In this document: positions 241 to 10,462 of the stretch, piece after piece
Layout of the letters: each line of letters starts with the position of its first letter
Numbering within the stretch: the stretch's first letter is position 1
Source of the DNA: a virus
Lineage: Duplodnaviria; Heunggongvirae; Uroviricota; Caudoviricetes
Strand: one strand, 5' to 3'
DNA: 10,462 nucleotides
IMG/VR virus record: IMGVR_UViG_2703718824_000015
The notes under the pieces: model-generated
Told to the model about the DNA's origin: nothing
Database searches by the model: none
The model's input: the letters and a program-made list of their open reading frames with translations, nothing else
Translations under genes and position numbers: made by a program

Positions 241-540
241 ATGAAATTTAAATATTCTGGCTTAACTGCCAGTGGCAACACTCACCCTAAATTTACGCGC
301 GGTGATATTTACCGCGACCAGTACGGCGGCACGGTAATGATTAAGGGCGTGGCGGGACGGTGCGTAACTTACCGCCGTGAAGGTTACGAATATGATTGCG
401 TGATGCCTGTTTATCAGTTCCGGCGTGATTTTTCTCTTGTGCAGGCCGTACCGCGTAACGTGCCCACCAGCAGGGAGAAAGCACGCGCCAATATTCAGAA
501 GATGAAAAACATGATTAACGGATTCAGGGGCAAAAAATGA
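241..540 (+). CDS. hypothetical small protein (99 aa), translationally coupled to the downstream primase gene
   Basis: ATG at 241 with GGAG about 10 nt upstream; stop TGA overlaps the ATG of the next gene (ATGA at 537-540); no recognisable motif. Confidence 0.5.
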   Translation: MKFKYSGLTASGNTHPKFTRGDIYRDQYGGTVMIKGVAGRCVTYRREGYEYDCVMPVYQFRRDFSLVQAVPRNVPTSREKARANIQKMKNMINGFRGKK

Positions 541-2291
541 AACTGGCACCGAACGTAAAACAGCAGCCACGCGGCATAAAACACAAAGAAACAGAAGTCA
601 TTATTTTTGCGGGTAGTGATGCCTGGTCACACGCGAAACAATGGCAGGAACATGACGCGCGTATGGCCGGAGATAATGAGCCTCCTGTGTGGCTTGGGGA
701 GCAGCAGTTATCAGAACTGGATAAGCTGCAAATTGTGCCGGAAGGCAGAAAATCCGTGCGCATATTCAGGGCCGGATATCTTGCGCCAGTAATGATAAAG
801 GCGATTGGTCAGAAGCTGGCGGCGGCAGGCGTACAGGATGCAAATTTTTACCCTGATGGTATGCACGGTCAGAAGGTGGAGAACTGGCGCGAATATCTGG
901 CCAGTGAGCGCCAGAATCTTTCTGATGGGCTGGTTATTGAGCTTCCTGTAAAGCAAAAGGCGCAACTTTCGCAGATGGCGGACAGTGAGCGCGCTCAACT
1001 TCTTGCCGGACGATTTGATGGCGTTTGCGTGCATCCTGAAAGTGAAATCGTTCACGTATGGCGCGGCGGGGTATGGTGTCCGGTCAGCACAATGGAACTT
1101 AGCCGCGAAATGGTGGCGATCTATTCAGAGCACAGGGCCACTTTCAGCAAGCGCGTAATCAATAACGCCGTGGAAGCGTTAAAAGTTATTGCCGAACCAA
1201 TGGGCGAGCCGTCCGGCGATTTGCTGCCGTTTGCCAATGGTGCGCTTGACCTGAAAACGGGGGAATTTTCCCCGCACACGCCGGAGAACTGGATCACCAC
1301 GCACAACGGTATTGAGTACACGCCACCAGCACCAGGGGAGAACATCCGCGATAACGCGCCAAACTTTCATAAATGGCTTGAGCACGCAGCCGGAAAAGAC
1401 CCGCGCAAGATGATGCGGATATGTGCCGCGCTGTACATGATTATGGCGAACCGGTACGACTGGCAGATGTTTATTGAGGCCACCGGAGACGGCGGGAGCG
1501 GTAAAAGTACATTCACACACATAGCCAGCCTTCTGGCAGGGAAACAGAACACGGTAAGCGCTGAAATGACATCGCTTGATGATGCTGGTGGACGTGCGCA
1601 GGTTGTCGGGAGTCGCCTTATCGTCCTGGCTGACCAGCCGAAATATACAGGCGAAGGAACGGGCATCAAGAAAATCACGGGCGGTGACCCCGTGGAAATT
1701 AACCCGAAATATGAAAAGCGTTTTACGGCGGTAATCAGGGCGGTGGTGCTGGCGACCAACAACAACCCGATGATATTCACCGAACGGGCCGGAGGTGTGG
1801 CACGTCGTCGCGTGATTTTCCGTTTCGACAATATCGTCAGTGAGGCCGAAAAAGACAGGGAGCTACCGGAAAAGATTGCGGCTGAAATCCCTGTCATTAT
1901 CCGCCGATTGCTGGCGAACTTTACCGACTCTGAGAAAGCACGGGCTTTACTACTGGAACAGCGTGACGGTGATGAAGCTCTGGCAATAAAGCAACAGACG
2001 GATCCGGTTATTGAGTTTTGCCAGTTCCTGAATTTTCTGGAGGAAGCGCGCGGCCTGATGATGGGGGGCGGTGGTGATTCAGTGAAGTACACGACCAGGA
2101 ACAGCCTTTACCGCGTCTATCTGGCGTTTATGGCATACGCAGGCAGGAGCAAACCGCTAAACGTGGCTGAGTTCAGCAAGGCCATGAAGCCAGCGGCGAA
2201 AGTTTACGGGCATGAATATATTACGCGAAAAGTTAAGGGAGTAACGCAGACCAACGCAATTACAACAGACGATTGCGACGCGTTTTTATAA
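537..2291 (+). CDS. P4/PICI-type replication initiator: primase with SF3-helicase-like P-loop NTPase domain
   Basis: 584-aa ORF with Walker A motif GDGGSGKST followed by a hydrophobic stretch ending in D (LIVLAD); overall resemblance to phage/plasmid primase P4-family C-terminal domain proteins; iteron array lies immediately downstream. Confidence 0.85.
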   Translation: MKLAPNVKQQPRGIKHKETEVIIFAGSDAWSHAKQWQEHDARMAGDNEPPVWLGEQQLSELDKLQIVPEGRKSVRIFRAGYLAPVMIKAIGQKLAAAGVQDANFYPDGMHGQKVENWREYLASERQNLSDGLVIELPVKQKAQLSQMADSERAQLLAGRFDGVCVHPESEIVHVWRGGVWCPVSTMELSREMVAIYSEHRATFSKRVINNAVEALKVIAEPMGEPSGDLLPFANGALDLKTGEFSPHTPENWITTHNGIEYTPPAPGENIRDNAPNFHKWLEHAAGKDPRKMMRICAALYMIMANRYDWQMFIEATGDGGSGKSTFTHIASLLAGKQNTVSAEMTSLDDAGGRAQVVGSRLIVLADQPKYTGEGTGIKKITGGDPVEINPKYEKRFTAVIRAVVLATNNNPMIFTERAGGVARRRVIFRFDNIVSEAEKDRELPEKIAAEIPVIIRRLLANFTDSEKARALLLEQRDGDEALAIKQQTDPVIEFCQFLNFLEEARGLMMGGGGDSVKYTTRNSLYRVYLAFMAYAGRSKPLNVAEFSKAMKPAAKVYGHEYITRKVKGVTQTNAITTDDCDAFL

Positions 2292-3566: not shown

Positions 3567-3825
3567 TTATTTTTTGTAAATTATTTGTTCGTGGTTGTTC
3601 CACGTTGTTCACTGAGCGGATCGGCATATTTTACCCGAACTGAATCATGATTATTCTCGCCCGTGGTGCCAGGACGCTGGGGCCACTTTCCCGCCTGTTA
3701 ATGTGCTCGCCAATATTCATTACCAGGCGGGAAAACGATCGGTGCGATTGCTGATTTCCTTATGAAAAACGGTTGAGTGTTTGCCGCGTCCTGGAGTTCC
3801 TTACTTAACCCCAGGACTTTTTTTT
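3567..3825 (+). promoter_or_regulatory. structured intergenic region upstream of the head operon (phased T-tract/TTGTTC repeats, 11-bp inverted repeat, hairpin plus T8); probable late promoter/control region
   Basis: TTGTTA 3564, TTGTAA 3575, TTGTTC 3585, 3595, 3605 at about 10-bp phasing; perfect inverted repeat TTTCCCGCCTG 3687-3697 / CAGGCGGGAAA 3724-3734; GTCCTGG 3788-3794 / CCAGGAC 3811-3817 followed by T8 abutting the capsid ATG. Confidence 0.3.
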
Positions 3826-4983
3826 ATGCCGAGAATAATCGAATTACGCCAGCAGAAAACCGCCATTAAAAATCAGATGCGCGACATGCTGGAGAACGCT
3901 GAAAAAGAAAACCGCAGTCTTAACGATGCTGAGGGCGCAAAATTTGACGAATTACGCGCTAAAGCTGAATCCCTCGATAAAGACATTTCCCGCCTTGAAG
4001 CCATTGCAGACGAAGAGCGCAGCAAGCCAGGTAAAAGCAGTCAGACCACTGACCCCGCAGAACTACGAAACTACATTCTGACGGGTGAAACCCGCGCATT
4101 AAGTACAGGCGTTCCCGCTGATGGTGGTTATACCGTTATCCCCGAACTGAACACCGAAATCATGCGAATGCTGACGGATGAATCCACCATGCGCCGCATC
4201 TGTACCGTGAAGAAAATCAGCAGCAACGAGTTTAAGCAGCTTGTTTCCGCTGGCGGTGCGACCGTTAACCACGGTGAAGAGGGTAAGGCACGCGAACAGA
4301 CCAGCACCCCGCAGATTAACGAGGTGAGCATTAAGCTGTATCCGGTCTATGCGTACCCGCGCACCACACAGGAAATCGTGGATTTTTCCGATGTGGACAT
4401 CCTTTCATGGCTGACGGGTGAGATTGGCGACACCTTCACGGAAACCGAAGAAAGCGATCTGGTTGTGGGCGACGGTGACAAAAAAGCAAAAGGTTTTTTA
4501 TCCGTACCCCGTGCAGAGAAGAACGACAAAGAGCGTGATTTTGGTACGTTGCAGGTAATTAAACCTTCCGAATCTCTGGCGTGGACATCTGCGGACCCGT
4601 TGATCGACCTGAAATTTGCATTACGTAAAAAATACCGCAAAAACGCGGTCTGGGTGGTTAACTCCACGACGGCGGCAAAACTTCAGAAGGTGAAGAACGC
4701 GAACGGTGATTACATCTGGCGCGACCGTTTACAGGCGGGTGATCCTGATACGTTGCTGGGCCTTCCGGTCGAATATCTGGAGTTTATGCCTGATAACGTT
4801 ATTGCCCTGGGTGACTTCAAACGCGGTTACTACATTGTTGATCACGAAACAGGTGTTCGCACCAGACCGGACAACCTCACAGAGCCGGGCTTCATCAAAA
4901 TTTTCACGCAGAAATATTTAGGCGGTGGCGTGGTGGATTCGAACGCGATCAAGATTCTGGAACTGCCACAGGACGACGATTAA
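3826..4983 (+). CDS. major capsid protein, HK97 family, with N-terminal coiled-coil (delta/scaffold-like) domain
   Basis: 385-aa product; charged N-terminal region predicted coiled-coil (ELRQQKTAIKNQMRDMLENAEKENRSL...), then HK97-type capsid body with C-terminal GDPDTLLGLPV and GDFKRGYYIVD motifs; start set at first ATG (3826), the ORF track extends to TTG 3781; no obvious SD. Confidence 0.85.
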   Translation: MPRIIELRQQKTAIKNQMRDMLENAEKENRSLNDAEGAKFDELRAKAESLDKDISRLEAIADEERSKPGKSSQTTDPAELRNYILTGETRALSTGVPADGGYTVIPELNTEIMRMLTDESTMRRICTVKKISSNEFKQLVSAGGATVNHGEEGKAREQTSTPQINEVSIKLYPVYAYPRTTQEIVDFSDVDILSWLTGEIGDTFTETEESDLVVGDGDKKAKGFLSVPRAEKNDKERDFGTLQVIKPSESLAWTSADPLIDLKFALRKKYRKNAVWVVNSTTAAKLQKVKNANGDYIWRDRLQAGDPDTLLGLPVEYLEFMPDNVIALGDFKRGYYIVDHETGVRTRPDNLTEPGFIKIFTQKYLGGGVVDSNAIKILELPQDDD

Positions 4984-5022: not shown

Positions 5023-5037
5023 ATGGGTGAAAAAATT

Positions 5038-5595
5038 ATGAAGAGTATGGAAATCCGGTCATCGGAAATCACCACCAGCGGAGCCGGTACGCTGACGGGC
5101 TACGTTGTTCGCTGGGATAAGCTTTCAGAACTGTTATGGGGTGAGTTTTACGAAAAATTCCAGCGGGGAGCGTTTACTGAATGGCTTGCAGCGGGTAATG
5201 ACGTTCGCGGCCTGTATGAGCATGACCACAGTATGTTACTGGGGCGTACCCGTTCCGGCACGCTGAAACTGGAAGAGGACGAAACAGGGTTACGCTTTGA
5301 ACTGACCCCACCGGATACCAGCACAGGGCGGGACGTTATCGAACTGGTTAAACGTGGTGATATATCCGGCATGAGCTTTGGCTTTCGTTCCCGTAAGGAT
5401 GTATGGGATACCACAACAGATCCATGCGTGCGCACCGTGCTGGTGGCGGAACTGTACGAAATTACCGTTACATCCGTTCCGGCTTACCCTGATTCCGGCG
5501 TGGAGCTGGCCCGCCGTTCCCTGTATGAGCAGCACCCCGAAAAAATGCCGCGTGCGGATAATCGCCGCTGGTGGGTGGATTTAGCGGGGGTGTGA
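5038..5595 (+). CDS. prohead maturation protease, HK97 family
   Basis: Resembles HK97 prohead protease (Peptidase S78/U35): N-terminal G.L.GY.V.W...........E.F..GAF pattern and conserved central region; start ambiguous (ATG at 5023, 5038 or 5047), 5038 chosen for GGGTGA spacing. Confidence 0.8.
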   Translation: MKSMEIRSSEITTSGAGTLTGYVVRWDKLSELLWGEFYEKFQRGAFTEWLAAGNDVRGLYEHDHSMLLGRTRSGTLKLEEDETGLRFELTPPDTSTGRDVIELVKRGDISGMSFGFRSRKDVWDTTTDPCVRTVLVAELYEITVTSVPAYPDSGVELARRSLYEQHPEKMPRADNRRWWVDLAGV

Positions 5596-5596
5596 T

Positions 5597-6808
5597 ATGT
5601 GGCCTTTCAGAAGAAAAAAAGAGCAGCGCAGCATGACGCTTGATGAATTTATGGCGCTGGCTGGCACATCGAACACGGGGGCGGGTGAGTACGTATCATC
5701 GGGGACAGCGGAATCACTGCCCGCCGTCATGAACGCCGTCACGGTCATCTCTGAGGCGGTGGCTACCATGCCGTGTTACCTGTACCTGGTACGCAATGAG
5801 AAGGGGAAGGAGGCCCGCGAGTGGCTTGATTCTCATCCGGTCGATCACATCCTCAACGAGCGCCCGAACGCATGGCAAACCCCCTACCAGTTTAAGCGAA
5901 TGATGATCCGCCACTGCCTGTTAAACGGTAATGCTTATGCGGTGATTCAGTGGGGGCGTGATGGTTTTCCGGCGGCTTTACATCCTTACCCGCCGCAGTC
6001 GGTGAACGTGGAGCAGACAGGCGAACACAACTGGCGCTACTGCATCACTGACGCCTACACCGGAAACACCCGCAACTATTTACCGTGGGAAGTACTTCAC
6101 CTTCGTTACTCCACGGATGACGGCTTTATGGGGCGCTCACCTGTAACCATCTGCCGCGAATCGCTGGGGCTTGGGCTGGCCCAACAACGCCACGGCGCGA
6201 GCGTGATGCGTGATGGCATGATGGCGGCAGGGGTTATCACGTCAGGCGAATGGCTGGACGGCGTGAAGGGCAAACAGGCATTAGCCGCACTGGAACGCTA
6301 CAAAGGGGCCAGAAACGCCGGAAAAACGCCCATCCTTGAAGGGGGGATGAGCTATCAGCAGCTGGGCATGAGTAATCAGGATGCTGAATGGCTGGCCTCC
6401 CGTCGCTTCACCATTGAAGACATCGCCCGAATGTTCAACGTCTCGCCGATTTTTTTGCAGGAATACAGCAACAGCACCTACAGCAATTTCAGCGAGGCAA
6501 GCCGCGCATTTCTCACCATGACGATGCGCCCGTGGCTGGCGAACTTTGAGCAGCAGATAAAAAACGCCCTGCTGGTGGCCTCGCCTGTACCTGGTATCCG
6601 GTATCAGGTGGAGTTTGACAGCGCGGACCTGTTACGGGCCACACCTGGCGAACGCTTTGCCACCTATGAGCGCGGCATCAAATCCGGCGTAATGTGTCCG
6701 AACGAAGCCCGCGAACGTGAAGGACTGTCACCGCGTGATGGTGGTGATGAGTTCAGCCAGGCATGGAAACAGGAAGTAAAAATCAGCGAGGGAGAAAAAC
6801 CGGAATGA
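5597..6808 (+). CDS. portal protein, HK97 family
   Basis: 403-aa product with typical portal N-terminal region (SGE.V....A..L.AV..AV..ISE.VA..P) and overall HK97-portal-like length and composition; GGGGG RBS upstream; stop overlaps next gene start. Confidence 0.85.
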   Translation: MWPFRRKKEQRSMTLDEFMALAGTSNTGAGEYVSSGTAESLPAVMNAVTVISEAVATMPCYLYLVRNEKGKEAREWLDSHPVDHILNERPNAWQTPYQFKRMMIRHCLLNGNAYAVIQWGRDGFPAALHPYPPQSVNVEQTGEHNWRYCITDAYTGNTRNYLPWEVLHLRYSTDDGFMGRSPVTICRESLGLGLAQQRHGASVMRDGMMAAGVITSGEWLDGVKGKQALAALERYKGARNAGKTPILEGGMSYQQLGMSNQDAEWLASRRFTIEDIARMFNVSPIFLQEYSNSTYSNFSEASRAFLTMTMRPWLANFEQQIKNALLVASPVPGIRYQVEFDSADLLRATPGERFATYERGIKSGVMCPNEAREREGLSPRDGGDEFSQAWKQEVKISEGEKPE

Positions 6809-7143
6809 ACATAGGGCGATTGCGTGACAGGATAACGATTCAGACCCTGAAACAGACCAGGGATATAACCGGCGAAATACTCGAAACGTGGGAGGACGGT
6901 CACACACTCTGGGCAAGCGTGAACATGGTCAGCAGCAAGGAGGCCATTTCATCGGGTGCAGAGCTGGCGATTGGTACCGTAAGGATCTGGATACGGTACC
7001 GGAAGGACATCAACGCCACCAGCCGGATAAAGGTCAGTACGGGGCCGCTGGCGGGGCGTGTACTGAATATCATCGGGCAGCCGCTGCCGGATGCCGCCAG
7101 GACACGCCTTGAAATTCTTTGTCGTGAGGGCGCGGAAAAATGA
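6805..7143 (+). CDS. head closure / head-tail adaptor protein (SPP1 gp16-like)
   Basis: 112 aa starting MNIGRLRDRITIQ, a typical N-terminus for this family; ATGA overlap with the portal stop and with the next gene. Confidence 0.7.
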   Translation: MNIGRLRDRITIQTLKQTRDITGEILETWEDGHTLWASVNMVSSKEAISSGAELAIGTVRIWIRYRKDINATSRIKVSTGPLAGRVLNIIGQPLPDAARTRLEILCREGAEK

Positions 7144-7436
7144 CAGAAGAACTTATCACCCTGGAAGAAGTGAAACTCCATTGCCGCATCGATGGCGACG
7201 AGGAAGACCAGTTAATCAGCGGATACATTGCCGCATCGCTTGAGGCGTGCCAGATACACATAGGCAGGCGCTTTGATGACGGGCTGGAGTTCACGCCAGC
7301 CATAAAGATTGGCTGCATGATGTTTATCGCTCACCTGTATGAGAATCGCCAGATTGTCGCGGATAACGCAAAAACACGCGTACCCATGACGATTGGCGCA
7401 CTCTGGACGGCTTACCGTGATGTGGGGGTGTACTGA
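7140..7436 (+). CDS. gp6-like head-tail connector protein
   Basis: 98 aa; N-terminus ITLEEVKLHCRIDGDEEDQLISGYIAAS is the characteristic gp6-like motif; translationally coupled on both sides. Confidence 0.65.
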   Translation: MTEELITLEEVKLHCRIDGDEEDQLISGYIAASLEACQIHIGRRFDDGLEFTPAIKIGCMMFIAHLYENRQIVADNAKTRVPMTIGALWTAYRDVGVY

Positions 7437-7876
7437 TGCCGTGGCAACCATTAAGACGATGCACAGAACCAGGCTGTAACAGGCGCGTTAAATCCGGCAA
7501 GTGTGAAGAGCACAGGCGGGCGGCATGGCGTGCAGAGGATGCCAGACGAGGACACCGCCGCGCGCGTGGATATTCCAGACAGTGGGACAAATACCGCGCC
7601 ATGTATCTGAGTAAAAACCCGTTATGCGTGCGATGCCTTGAGAAGGGGATATATACGCCCGCCGTGGTGGTGGATCACATTATCCCGATTAATGGCGGTG
7701 ATGATGTTCTCTTCTGGCCCGAATGGAACCATCAACCATTGTGTCAGGCGTGTCATAACCAGAAAACGAAATGGCTTGATCCGGCAACAAAAAGCAAGCG
7801 TGCCGCAGGTGGATTTCGTGAAGAGGAAGAACGGGCCGCTAACCGCAATAACTGGATGTATGACGCTGATGAATGA
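7436..7876 (+). CDS. HNH endonuclease (terminase-associated, HK97 gp74-like)
   Basis: 146 aa; Cys pairs (C..C, C..C) and the HNH core DHIIPINGG...N.QPLC..CHN.KT; located immediately upstream of the terminase small-subunit gene. Confidence 0.8.
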   Translation: MPWQPLRRCTEPGCNRRVKSGKCEEHRRAAWRAEDARRGHRRARGYSRQWDKYRAMYLSKNPLCVRCLEKGIYTPAVVVDHIIPINGGDDVLFWPEWNHQPLCQACHNQKTKWLDPATKSKRAAGGFREEEERAANRNNWMYDADE

Positions 7877-8045
7877 GCGGGAACAAAACCGCCTTATCCG
7901 TGGACTTATAAGGCAGCGTGACGCATGGAAGACACAGGAAACAGGGCATAAAGATAAAGCGTCAGGACGTGCAGAACGCATCACAGCGAAGCGATTAACC
8001 GACCGTGACCGCGAGGTTATGGAATGTTTCCGCAATCGCTGGTGA
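7860..8045 (+). CDS. hypothetical small basic protein (about 61 aa), overlapping the 3' end of the HNH gene
   Basis: ORF in a different frame from HNH (ATG at 7860 or 7869); Arg/Lys-rich product (...NEREQNRLIRGLIRQRDAWKTQETGHKDKASGRAERITAKRLTDRDREVMECFRNRW); no motif recognised, may be spurious. Confidence 0.3.
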   Translation: MTLMNEREQNRLIRGLIRQRDAWKTQETGHKDKASGRAERITAKRLTDRDREVMECFRNRW

Positions 8046-8165
8046 TGCTGTATGACGGGGTGGGGGGCGTTTTCAGGACAAACCCGACCCCGCCGGGCAC
8101 CGAACGCCTCCTCAAATTTTTATGCACGGGAATTTTTTGAAAAATAATCTGGCGAAAAAATAAGC
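8046..8165. other. candidate cos / packaging-initiation region between the HNH and terS genes
   Basis: Noncoding 120 bp with G-run GACGGGGTGGGGGGCG (8054-8069) and imperfect partner CCCGACCCCGCCGGG (8083-8097), flanked by AT-rich tracts; position matches cos in HK97-like phages; purely positional and compositional. Confidence 0.25.
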
Positions 8166-8522
8166 ATGGCAAGACCACCGAAAGCCCCCGCCTACCTGGA
8201 TGATATCGCCGTGAAGCAGTGGCGGGAAAAATCGCGGCAGCTTGCGGAACGGGGTGACCTGACCCCCGCCGACTGGAGTAATCTGGAACTGTATTGCGTC
8301 AATTACTCGATATACCGGAAAGCCGTCGCAGACCTTGCGGCGCGCGGGTTCAGCATTGTTAACAGTCAGGGCGGAGAGAGCAGAAACCCCGCATTAAGCG
8401 CGAAATCCGACGCGGAAAGAGTGATGATAAAAATGGCCTCCTTGCTCGGTTTTGACCCGATAAGCCGCCGTAAAAATCCACCGGAAACAGAAGAAGAGGA
8501 CGAGCTTGACCGCCTGGAATAA
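8166..8522 (+). CDS. terS: terminase small subunit (P27 family-like)
   Basis: 118 aa; resembles P27-family small terminase, including the N-terminal region and acidic C-terminus (EEEDELDRLE); directly upstream of and overlapping the large terminase gene. Confidence 0.8.
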   Translation: MARPPKAPAYLDDIAVKQWREKSRQLAERGDLTPADWSNLELYCVNYSIYRKAVADLAARGFSIVNSQGGESRNPALSAKSDAERVMIKMASLLGFDPISRRKNPPETEEEDELDRLE

Positions 8523-10167
8523 GTACGCAGAAGACGTAAAAACGGGCAAAATTCCGGCCTGTAAACGGCTGAAACAGGCCGTTAAACGGTACTTTTCGGA
8601 CCTTGAAAGCCCCCTTTACACGTTCGATCGTGAGGTTGTGGAGCGGTTTATTGCCTTTTCCAGGGTGTGCCCGCACGTAAAAGGGCCGATGCGTGGCAGA
8701 CCCATTGAGCTGGAGCCGTGGCAGCAGTTCGCCTTTGCGTGCATCCTCGGCTTTAAGGTTAAGGCCACCGGACGGCGCAAATACACGAGCGCCTTTATCG
8801 AAGTGCCGCGCAAAAATGCGAAATCCACGACCGCCGCGATTCTGGCTAACTGGTTTCTGATTATGGAGAACGGGCAGCAGGATATTTACACCGCAGCGGT
8901 GAGCCGTGACCAGGCGCGGATCGTTTTTGATGATGCGCGTCAGATGTGCCTTTTATCCCGACCGTTACGCAGGCGGGTGAATATTCAGGCCCACAAGGTG
9001 ATGCACCCGAAAAGCAACAGCCTGTTAAAGCCGCTGGCAGCAAAAGCGGCAACCATCGAGGGAACAAACCCCAGCCTTTCCATCGTGGACGAATACCACC
9101 TACACCCCGATAACGGCGTTTATTCCGCGCTTGAGCTGGGGATGGGCGCACGTCCCGAAGGGCTGTTATTTGCCATTACCACATCGGGCAGTAACGTCGT
9201 TTCAACCTGTAAACAGCACTATGATTATTGCTGCCAGATCCTGGACGGCGAAGAGGTCAACGATTCAATTTTTGTGCTGATTTACGAGCTGGACGACGAA
9301 AACGAGGTTGATGATCCGGCGATGTGGATAAAGGCTAACCCTAACATCGATGTTTCCGTGGATCGTGAAAAACTGGCCTCAACCATCCAGAAAGCGCGGG
9401 GTATTCCGTCGCAATGGGTGGAGATGATGACAAAGCGATTTAATATCTGGTGCCAGGGGGCTACCCCGTGGATGGGTAACGGCGCATGGGCTGAGTGTGC
9501 CGGAACGTTCACGGAGGAAGATTTACACGGGCAGGAGTGTTACGCGGGGCTGGACTTATCATCAACCAGCGATATTTCCAGCGTGTGCTATGCCTTTCCG
9601 GTCGGTAAAAATATCATGCTGGTTTCCCGTCATTATCTGCCGGAGTTCCAGCTACAGAACCCCGCCAATAAAAACCGCGCTGTCTATCGCCAGTGGGCTA
9701 AAGCGGGCTGGATACGCACAACGCCAGGTGACTGCATTGATTACGACCGGATCAGAGATGACATCATGCAGGATGCGGAGAAATTTAATATCAGGCTGGT
9801 GGGCTTTGATACGTGGAACGCCACGCATCTCAGGACGCAATTACAGGGGGCTGGTTTTGAGGTGGAGCCGTTCCCGCAAACCTACCTCAGATTCAGTCCG
9901 GCGGCGAAATCGTTCGAAGTTTTTGTTAACCGCAGGGTGATTGTGCATCGTGGCGATCCGGTGTTGTCCTGGTCGATGAGTAACGTCGTGATGCAGAGTG
10001 ACGCGAACGCCAATATCAAGCCGAACAAGAAAAAATCACCGAACAAGATAGACCCGAGCGTGGCGGCGCTGATGGCGTTTGGTACATTCCAGGCAGAGCA
10101 TGAGGATTTTGCTTTTGATATAAGCGACAGCCACCGCCAGAAACTGGAAGAATTTAGCGGGGTGTAA
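8506..10167 (+). CDS. terL: terminase large subunit (Terminase_1 family)
   Basis: 553 aa; N-terminal YAEDVKTGKIPACKRLKQAVKRYFSDLE typical of large terminases, deviant Walker A (VPRKNAKST), C-terminal nuclease-like region; likely TTG start at 8506 with AAGAGGA SD 6 nt upstream, overlapping the terS 3' end. Confidence 0.9.
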   Translation: MTAWNKYAEDVKTGKIPACKRLKQAVKRYFSDLESPLYTFDREVVERFIAFSRVCPHVKGPMRGRPIELEPWQQFAFACILGFKVKATGRRKYTSAFIEVPRKNAKSTTAAILANWFLIMENGQQDIYTAAVSRDQARIVFDDARQMCLLSRPLRRRVNIQAHKVMHPKSNSLLKPLAAKAATIEGTNPSLSIVDEYHLHPDNGVYSALELGMGARPEGLLFAITTSGSNVVSTCKQHYDYCCQILDGEEVNDSIFVLIYELDDENEVDDPAMWIKANPNIDVSVDREKLASTIQKARGIPSQWVEMMTKRFNIWCQGATPWMGNGAWAECAGTFTEEDLHGQECYAGLDLSSTSDISSVCYAFPVGKNIMLVSRHYLPEFQLQNPANKNRAVYRQWAKAGWIRTTPGDCIDYDRIRDDIMQDAEKFNIRLVGFDTWNATHLRTQLQGAGFEVEPFPQTYLRFSPAAKSFEVFVNRRVIVHRGDPVLSWSMSNVVMQSDANANIKPNKKKSPNKIDPSVAALMAFGTFQAEHEDFAFDISDSHRQKLEEFSGV

Positions 10168-10180
10168 TGAGGTCAGCAGC

Positions 10181-10462
10181 ATGACAGAAGCCGAAATAAC
10201 GGGATTAATCCGCCGCGTTGCCGGAATCAGCCAGCAGGCTGACGAACAGGCCACGCAGCCGGACAGCGTGACAGCCGAAAACTATGCGCGTGTTGTTGCT
10301 GAGGTGATGCGCCGTGATGGTATAGAACTTAATGGCGTGGATATGCGCAACATACGAACCAGAGTTCTTGAGTTGCTGGCCTACCGTCGCCGTGTGGAGA
10401 TGTATCGGGAGAAGGAGAAAATAACGTACCACTGGAAGAAGCCGGAGCGGTTGCGGCGGTAA
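10181..10462 (+). CDS. hypothetical protein (93 aa) downstream of terL
   Basis: ATG at 10181 with GAGG SD about 8 nt upstream; complete ORF ending TAA at the window edge; no motif recognised. Confidence 0.45.
   Translation: MTEAEITGLIRRVAGISQQADEQATQPDSVTAENYARVVAEVMRRDGIELNGVDMRNIRTRVLELLAYRRRVEMYREKEKITYHWKKPERLRR

Follow-up and report, generated by a model that had tools for sequence, protein, structure and literature searches.

The gene-free region at positions 8046-8165, which lies directly upstream of terS, very probably represents cos in a capsid-forming phage-inducible chromosomal island (cf-PICI) of the EcCIEDL933 type, and it would be a site of the HK97/phiE125 class, the members of which work together with an HNH nuclease. 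The window, i.e., the whole stretch of DNA that was analyzed, has a length of 10,462 nucleotides. The cut is most likely located in a C-rich block about 45 bases 3' of a conserved G-run. The preliminary description had proposed a cos site in this gap, and the proposal is supported by assemblies of related islands that break within the gap, one of them with an exact loss of 10 nt, and by the register that the region shares with the cos sites of phiE125 and HK97. A cos site between the HNH gene and terS is the textbook arrangement in HK97-like packaging modules. The site is ordinary and expected for a known cos class in a known satellite family.

The Window Belongs to a Capsid-Forming Island

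The window is a cf-PICI, a satellite in E. coli, and it is about 99% identical to copies of the EcCIEDL933 type, i.e., the O157:H7 island. Islands of this kind have a size of about 10-18 kb and carry an integrase, an alpA/rep module and genes for capsid, protease, portal and connectors as well as hnh, terS and terL, but no tail or lysis genes. The window fits this definition according to its Pfam assignments and to the RefSeq neighborhood of a copy with 99% identity. In the 99%-identical O157:H7 copy the genes from integrase to terL reside inside tqsA, with the integrase gene at the start of the island, and tail and lysis genes are absent (RefSeq). The segment 7436-8600 was present with an identity of at least 80% in 514 of the 5426 complete E. 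coli genomes, and it was chromosomal every time. EcCIEDL933 has been described as a capsid-forming PICI with a matching architecture (10.1101/2022.09.08.507074). The packaging modules of EcCIEDL933 and KpCIDSM30104 have the same gene set and the same gene order as the window (capsid, protease, portal, connectors, hnh, terS, terL).

The features of the window are listed in Table 1. The previously described order of HNH gene, gap and terS was borne out, and terL comes next. The HNH protein is 39% identical to HK97 gp74 (E=2e-19), and TerL is 27% identical to HK97 gp2 (E=5e-47). Immediately 3' of terL, an additional ORF (10181-10462) reaches the end of the window; it matches phrog_1561 (E=2.9e-56), a family without known function.

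Table 1. Genes of the window and elements of the predicted cos region. Entropies are column entropies over 207 unique relatives; signed numbers are positions relative to the predicted top-strand cut.
Feature	Position	Strand	Evidence or remark
D5-type primase	537-2291		Pfam
HK97-fold major capsid protein	3781-4983		Pfam
S78 prohead protease	5023-5595		Pfam
Portal	5597-6808		Pfam
Head completion protein	6763-7143		Pfam
gp6-like connector	7140-7436		Pfam
HNH endonuclease, HK97 gp74 homologue (accessory nuclease, cos cleavage)	7436-7876	+	Pfam HNH E=1.8e-8; phrog_144 E=8e-45
Conserved 61-aa basic ORF, hypothetical protein	7860-8045	+	phrog_3173 E=8e-37
Whole non-coding cos region (predicted), small ORF to terS	8046-8165	.	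ORF table; assemblies of relatives break here
Conserved G-block CGGGGTGGGGGGCGTTTTCAGGAC	8056-8079	+	Entropy 0.275; right-end side of predicted cos
Hypervariable spacer, contains dyad partner 8083-8092	8080-8094	+	Entropy 0.94, similar to synonymous sites
Segment GGGCAC	8095-8100		Entropy 0.52
Predicted 10-nt 3' cohesive end 5'-CGAACGCCTC-3'	8101-8110	+	Entropy 0.48, moderate conservation
Conserved left-end block CTCAAATTTTTATGCACGGGAATTTTTTGAAAAATAAT	8111-8148 (+1..+38)	+	Entropy 0.276
Predicted TerS recognition site CACGGGAATTTTTTG	8125-8139 (+15..+29)	+	Analogy with HK97
Variable terS leader and ribosome-binding region	8149-8165	+	Entropy 1.05; several unrelated variants
Small terminase TerS, P27/Terminase_4 family	8166-8522	+	PF05119 E=1.3e-23; phrog_83 E=2.6e-39
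Large terminase TerL, HK97 family, ATPase and nuclease	8506-10167	+	Pfam PF03354, PF20441

The preliminary description did not contain the conserved small ORF in the interval between the HNH gene and the gap. It shares 17 nt with the 3' end of the HNH gene, it is annotated as hypothetical protein in RefSeq as well as in vB_KppS-Ant, and a Pfam search with it yielded no match. The ORF ends with TGG TGA (8040-8045) in the window versus TGA TGA in O157 and most other copies, so that 61 rather than 60 amino acids are encoded. A small ORF is also found at the equivalent position in the Acinetobacter phage AbIPP1. The cf-PICI preprint mentions a "hypothetical gene 1792" of the packaging module, the mutant of which was merely reduced in transfer; this gene may be identical with the small ORF.

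Two Blocks of the Gap Are as Conserved as Coding Sequence

The gap of 120 bases is free of annotated genes and is the largest one between the capsid gene and terL; the next largest comprises 39 nt. Column entropies were computed over 207 unique relatives, and they revealed a sharp alternation of conserved and variable segments (Table 1). For comparison, the entropies at codon positions 1, 2 and 3 of terS were 0.29, 0.23 and 0.86, respectively. Two non-coding blocks, the G-block and the left-end block, had values of about 0.28 versus 0.86 at the third positions of terS, and they are thus under selection equal to that of protein-coding positions (codon positions 1 and 2 of terS).

The G-block contains the G-run GGGGTGGGGGG at 8057-8067, which occurs only once in the window and has the positions -54 to -44 relative to the predicted top-strand cut. 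The length of the G-run differs among near-identical E. coli copies (L007, L021, L034), in which the second run comprises 5 to 8 G; homopolymer slippage or sequencing error could be the reason. The spacer downstream of the G-block exists in at least 10 unrelated variants, while its length is constant, and the distance between the G-block and the block beginning at +1 is constant in the 207 relatives. Most spacer variants contain short palindromes (8080-8094) with differing registers. Inspection of the variants therefore gave no reason to claim a compensatory hairpin within the spacer.

Assemblies of Related Islands Break in the Gap

Physical ends were found in the metagenomic contig IMGVR_UViG_3300022664_000095, which is linear, has the size of an island (15,518 bp), and has both of its ends within the gap. 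It originates from a Klebsiella-type relative, the TerS of which is about 80-85% identical to that of the window. The contig ends with ...AAGGCAC, i.e., ...CAAGGCAC / ...GGTTTTCAGGACAAAACCCAAGCCGCAAGGCAC, and it begins with CTCAAATTTTT, i.e., CTCAAATTTTTACGCACGG / CTCAAATTTTTACGCACGGTGATTTTTTTG..., 60 nt 5' of terS. In 128 of the 128 intact gap variants, exactly 10 nt are present at this point between the GGCAC-type and the CTCAAATTTTT-type sequence, e.g., CACCCGCCCC, and exactly these 10 nt are missing at the junction of the contig. The fact that the 10 nt are lost and not duplicated would fit 3' overhangs that were trimmed by end-polishing; 5' overhangs would have been filled in and duplicated.

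Two patterns were run against IMG/VR and one against bulk metagenomes, and a second contig with clean cos ends was not found. Further matches near the ends of loci were dismissed, as they were due to the boundaries of storage chunks or, e.g., in L404, to unrelated sequence. A look-up of contigs encoding the TerS of the window yielded chromosomal copies only.

Two virion-derived assemblies of related islands also break in the gap. One of them is LR881103.1 (vB_KppS-Ant), a linear cf-PICI record of 16.5 kb; the assembled reads came from a Nextera XT library of virion DNA of K. pneumoniae DSM 30104. Both ends of the record are in the gap: it ends with ...GGGGTGGGGGAGGTTTTCAGGAC and starts 22 nt 5' of terS, and in comparison with L204, an intact contig that matches it, 69 nt are missing from the middle of the gap (about 8080-8148 of the window). 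The second one is PQ569648.1, the cf-PICI part of which extends from codon 2 of terS through the end of the small ORF and lacks the entire gap. Cohesive ends have been reported for cf-PICIs, including KpCIDSM30104, the island carried by K. pneumoniae DSM 30104 (10.1101/2025.02.11.637232).

Both records carry names of phages. "Escherichia phage vB_KppS-Ant", which was called a filamentous ssDNA prophage in its paper, is a cf-PICI genome, and its gene content comprises capsid, protease, portal, HNH, TerS, TerL, integrase and primase. The virome clone MF417951 is 90% similar to it. PQ569648.1, "Klebsiella phage P12620-1" (106.5 kb), seems to be chimeric, with a cf-PICI in its last approximately 15.9 kb (90.64-106.5 kb) that is joined to unrelated sequence.

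The Predicted Cut Is in Register with Mapped cos Sites

At the positions that correspond to the contig ends, the window contains GGGCAC (8095-8100), followed by CGAACGCCTC (8101-8110) and by CTCAAATTTTT (8111 onward). Based on the ends of the relative's contig and on the register with phiE125 and HK97, the most likely positions of the nicks are predicted to be 8100/8101 in the bottom strand and 8110/8111 in the top strand, which would result in the 10-nt 3' end 5'-CGAACGCCTC-3'.

For comparison, the sequences of several phages were anchored on their mapped ends, and that of the window on its inferred ends, and they were compared without gaps over 105 nt, including 5000 shuffles. The results are shown in Table 2. 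The similarity to HK97 stems partly from low-complexity runs, and a scan of alignment offsets between the window and HK97 gave peaks at -1, 0 and -2. In the case of PhiS63 the in-register similarity was not significant (30/105, p=0.22); nonetheless, its G-run ends at -44 and it has a T-tract at +24 to +29.

Table 2. Anchored comparison of the predicted cos site of the window with those of phages.
Site	Last duplex bases	Overhang	Post-cut bases	Identity to window	Shuffles
Window (predicted)	GCAC	CGAACGCCTC	CTCAAATTTTTATGCACGGGAATTTTTT		
phiE125	GGAC	CGCCCGCTTC	GTCGAATTTTCACGCCCGCGAAATT (+1 also given as GTCGAATTTT)	51/105	0/5000 reach
ST64B	GGAC	TGCCCGCCCC	CTCGAATTTTTATACCCGCG	45/105	0/5000 reach
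Pmp8	GAAC	CGCCCCCCCA	ATCAAATTTTTACGCAAGGCAATTTTTT	62/105	0/5000 reach
Zirinka	ACAC	CGGCTGGGGA	GCTCGCTTTTTACACGC	42/105	p=0.0014
HK97	TGAC	CGCCGCCAAA	GTTTGAATTTAACGCTAACCCGATTTTTTT	40/105	p=0.002

The window, phiE125, ST64B, Pmp8, Zirinka and HK97 have in common AC/C or AC/T at the bottom-strand nick (slash), a 10-nt overhang (nick and overhang are predicted in the case of the window), and (G/C)TC(G/A)AATTTT at +1. A G-run that ends at about -41 to -45 relative to the top-strand cut is present in HK97, phiE125, Zirinka (Gordonia), PhiS63 (Clostridium), Pmp8 (Pasteurella) and ST64B (Salmonella), and in most of these six anchored phages a tract rich in T or A is found near +23. In the papers that were consulted, a description of this shared geometry of G-run and T-tract was not found, nor was a published test of the role of the G-run or G-block in cos.

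The Burkholderia phages phiE125, phi1026b and phi644-2 have a 10-nt 3' extension with the sequence 5'-CGCCCGCTTC-3'. For phiE125 and phi644-2 the 10-base 3' extensions, with this sequence at the right end, were determined experimentally (PMC2920897), and CGCCCGCTTC represents the final 10 nt of the phiE125 record. The TerS of phiE125 is also a member of the P27 family and is 29% identical to that of the window. Further similarities are the upstream G-run, GAC/C at the bottom-strand nick, the C-rich 10-nt overhang, and the sequence at +1 (GTCGAATTTTCACGC versus CTCAAATTTTTATGC). In contrast, the overhangs, which are mapped for phiE125 and predicted for the window, differ at 4 of the 10 positions, the gene just 5' of the right end of phiE125 is annotated as holin rather than HNH, and phiE125 is a full phage whereas the window is a satellite.

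HK97 and HK106 share with the window the order HNH, cos, terS, terL, homologous TerL and HNH proteins, and a 10-nt 3' overhang (predicted in the case of the window). The G-run of HK97 comprises nine G and ends at -43, that of the window at -44. For HK97, 10-nt 3' overhangs have been mapped, and the minimal TerS site extends from +15 to +29 and includes an A-tract (PMC9410871, PMC11331095). The T-tract of the window is at +23 to +28, versus +24 to +30 for the tract in HK97, which is inside the mapped minimal site (PMC11331095). The sequences differ, i.e., the overhang is CGCCGCCAAA in HK97 versus CGAACGCCTC in the window, and the TerS site CTAACCCGATTTTTT versus the putative site CACGGGAATTTTTTG. 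A comparison of the TerS of the window with HK97 gp1 revealed no detectable similarity. HK97 TerS belongs to an unrelated sequence family and was dropped as homologue of the island TerS, and the transfer of the +15 to +29 site to the window is therefore an analogy only.

The cos of lambda (cosQ, cosN, cosB) follows the same logic as that predicted for the window, with a nick site, a region downstream of it that is bound by TerS and adjoins the terminase genes, and a conserved element on the side of the right end. It differs in its 12-nt 5' overhangs and its symmetric cosN, lambda has no HNH protein, its TerS and TerL are unrelated, and a similarity between the sequences of the two cos sites was not seen.

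Alternative Explanations

The preliminary description had put the emphasis on a G-run with an imperfect dyad partner and on flanking AT-rich tracts. The dyad is indeed present in the sequence; CGGGGTGGGG (8056-8065) and CCCGACCCCG (8083-8092) are complementary at 9 of 10 positions and are 17 nt apart. Together with the strong conservation of the G-run arm, this could suggest a cut within or between the two arms (8056-8092), analogous to the symmetric cosN of lambda. Such a cut is highly improbable. The partner arm falls into the segment of the gap that varies most (entropy of 0.94 versus 0.28 for the G-block in the 207 relatives), and in Klebsiella-type and Pasteurella islands this segment is swapped for unrelated sequence. 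Folding of the gap as single-stranded DNA had a z-score of 0.20, and 111 of the 200 shuffles folded equally well or better; a hairpin or cruciform in the gap was dropped, because there was no structure signal. In addition, the ends follow the G-run at a distance of about 33-44 nt both in the linear contig and in phiE125, HK97 and Zirinka, the ends of which are mapped. The G-run thus counts as a conserved component of cos; the dyad does not represent a real feature, and the predicted cut is located downstream of both arms. An A/T-rich stretch follows the G-run toward terS (about 8114-8165), and no such tract is present on the other side.

Conserved non-coding sequence could in principle also have a regulatory role, and the gap is directly 5' of terS, with a variable leader as its last 17 nt. 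It might therefore contain nothing else than a signal for terS/terL expression, e.g., a ribosome-binding region, an internal promoter or an RNA element, with the packaging site elsewhere or of the pac type. This is very unlikely, because an Rfam search of the gap at E-values up to 1 gave no match, and terminator-like sites and forward-strand promoter-like sites were not found in the gap. The lone promoter-like site nearby is on the minus strand at the terS end (8172-8144), and the counts were not above those of shuffles, so that a reading of the gap as promoter or terminator was dropped. Furthermore, the assemblies of three relatives break in the gap, one of them with a clean 10-nt loss, cohesive ends are reported for cf-PICIs (10.1101/2025.02.11.637232), and the conserved blocks agree with mapped cos sites at the level of single bases. 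Headful packaging is also at odds with a TerL of the HK97 cos family and with the unique ends of the relative's contig. Somewhat less improbable, yet still unlikely, is that the gap is a cos site with other nick positions or another polarity, e.g., a 5' overhang or, in the E. coli lineage, a cut displaced by a few bases. The block of the overhang is only moderately conserved, its sequence is CGAACGCCTC in the window versus the CACCCGCCCC type in the relative with clean ends, and a single clean contig was found. However, the spacing between the G-block and the +1 block is invariant, a loss of 10 nt rather than a duplication fits 3' overhangs, and phiE125, HK97 and Zirinka agree in the register of their 10-nt 3' ends.

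A Model for cos Cleavage and Packaging

The features of the HK97/phiE125-type class that were found in the window are the flanking HNH and terS-terL genes, TerL and HNH proteins that are homologues of gp2 and gp74, and the register with mapped sites. For a cos site of this class, analogy suggests the following course of events. The island TerS would bind to the conserved block at about 8125-8139, including the T-tract, just 3' of the cut. TerL, aided by HNH, would then make staggered nicks in the top strand (8110/8111) and in the bottom strand (8100/8101), with a putative assignment of the strands to the two nucleases, and would leave 10-nt 3'-protruding cohesive ends with the sequence 5'-CGAACGCCTC-3'. 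Packaging would proceed rightward from terS around the genome of about 15 kb and would stop at the next cos, so that the HNH gene, the small ORF and the G-block would enter the head last. The G-block (-54 to -44) would be an element of the right end, which may aid termination, similar to cosQ, or may position the nucleases HNH and TerL. Published coordinates or sequences of cos were not found in the cf-PICI papers that were consulted.

Island and Helper Phage

HK106 and HK446 are helpers of EcCIEDL933, and HK106 has been proven. The terS DNA of both phages is 100% identical to that of HK97, and the cos region of HK106 equals that of HK97 with the exception of a run of ten instead of nine G. 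Nearly all genes of the island packaging module are needed for transfer of the island, while the helper homologues are dispensable (10.1101/2022.09.08.507074). Conversely, the helper phage can dispense with the packaging genes of the island (10.1101/2022.09.08.507074). Island and helper share the geometry of the cos site. The sequences of the overhang and of the putative TerS site are different, and so is the family of TerS; these differences fit the reported mutually exclusive packaging of island and helper (10.1101/2022.09.08.507074). The earlier suggestion that the packaging specificity of the island is distinct from that of its helper gained support, because HK106 has the cos of HK97, with another overhang and another TerS-site sequence.

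A tentative reading, somewhat short of an even chance, is that satellite and helper have an identical cos geometry in spite of unrelated TerS proteins because it is set by the shared machinery of TerL, HNH and portal, with the G-run as a universal element. If this is true, TerL, HNH and portal would set the geometry across phages of Gram-negative bacteria, of actinobacteria and possibly of clostridia, and the exclusivity of packaging would rest on few bases in the overhang and in the segment from +12 to +22. The G-run would then be a universal functional element of cos sites that work with an HNH nuclease, perhaps similar to cosQ of lambda. Two public "phage" records are, or contain, cf-PICI genomes that are broken at cos. 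The prediction of a cf-PICI cos at the level of single bases suggests a minimal packaging signal of about 8056-8148 for plasmids or synthetic cargo, and it opens the way for tests of how island and helper exclude one another from packaging despite an equal layout of their cos sites.
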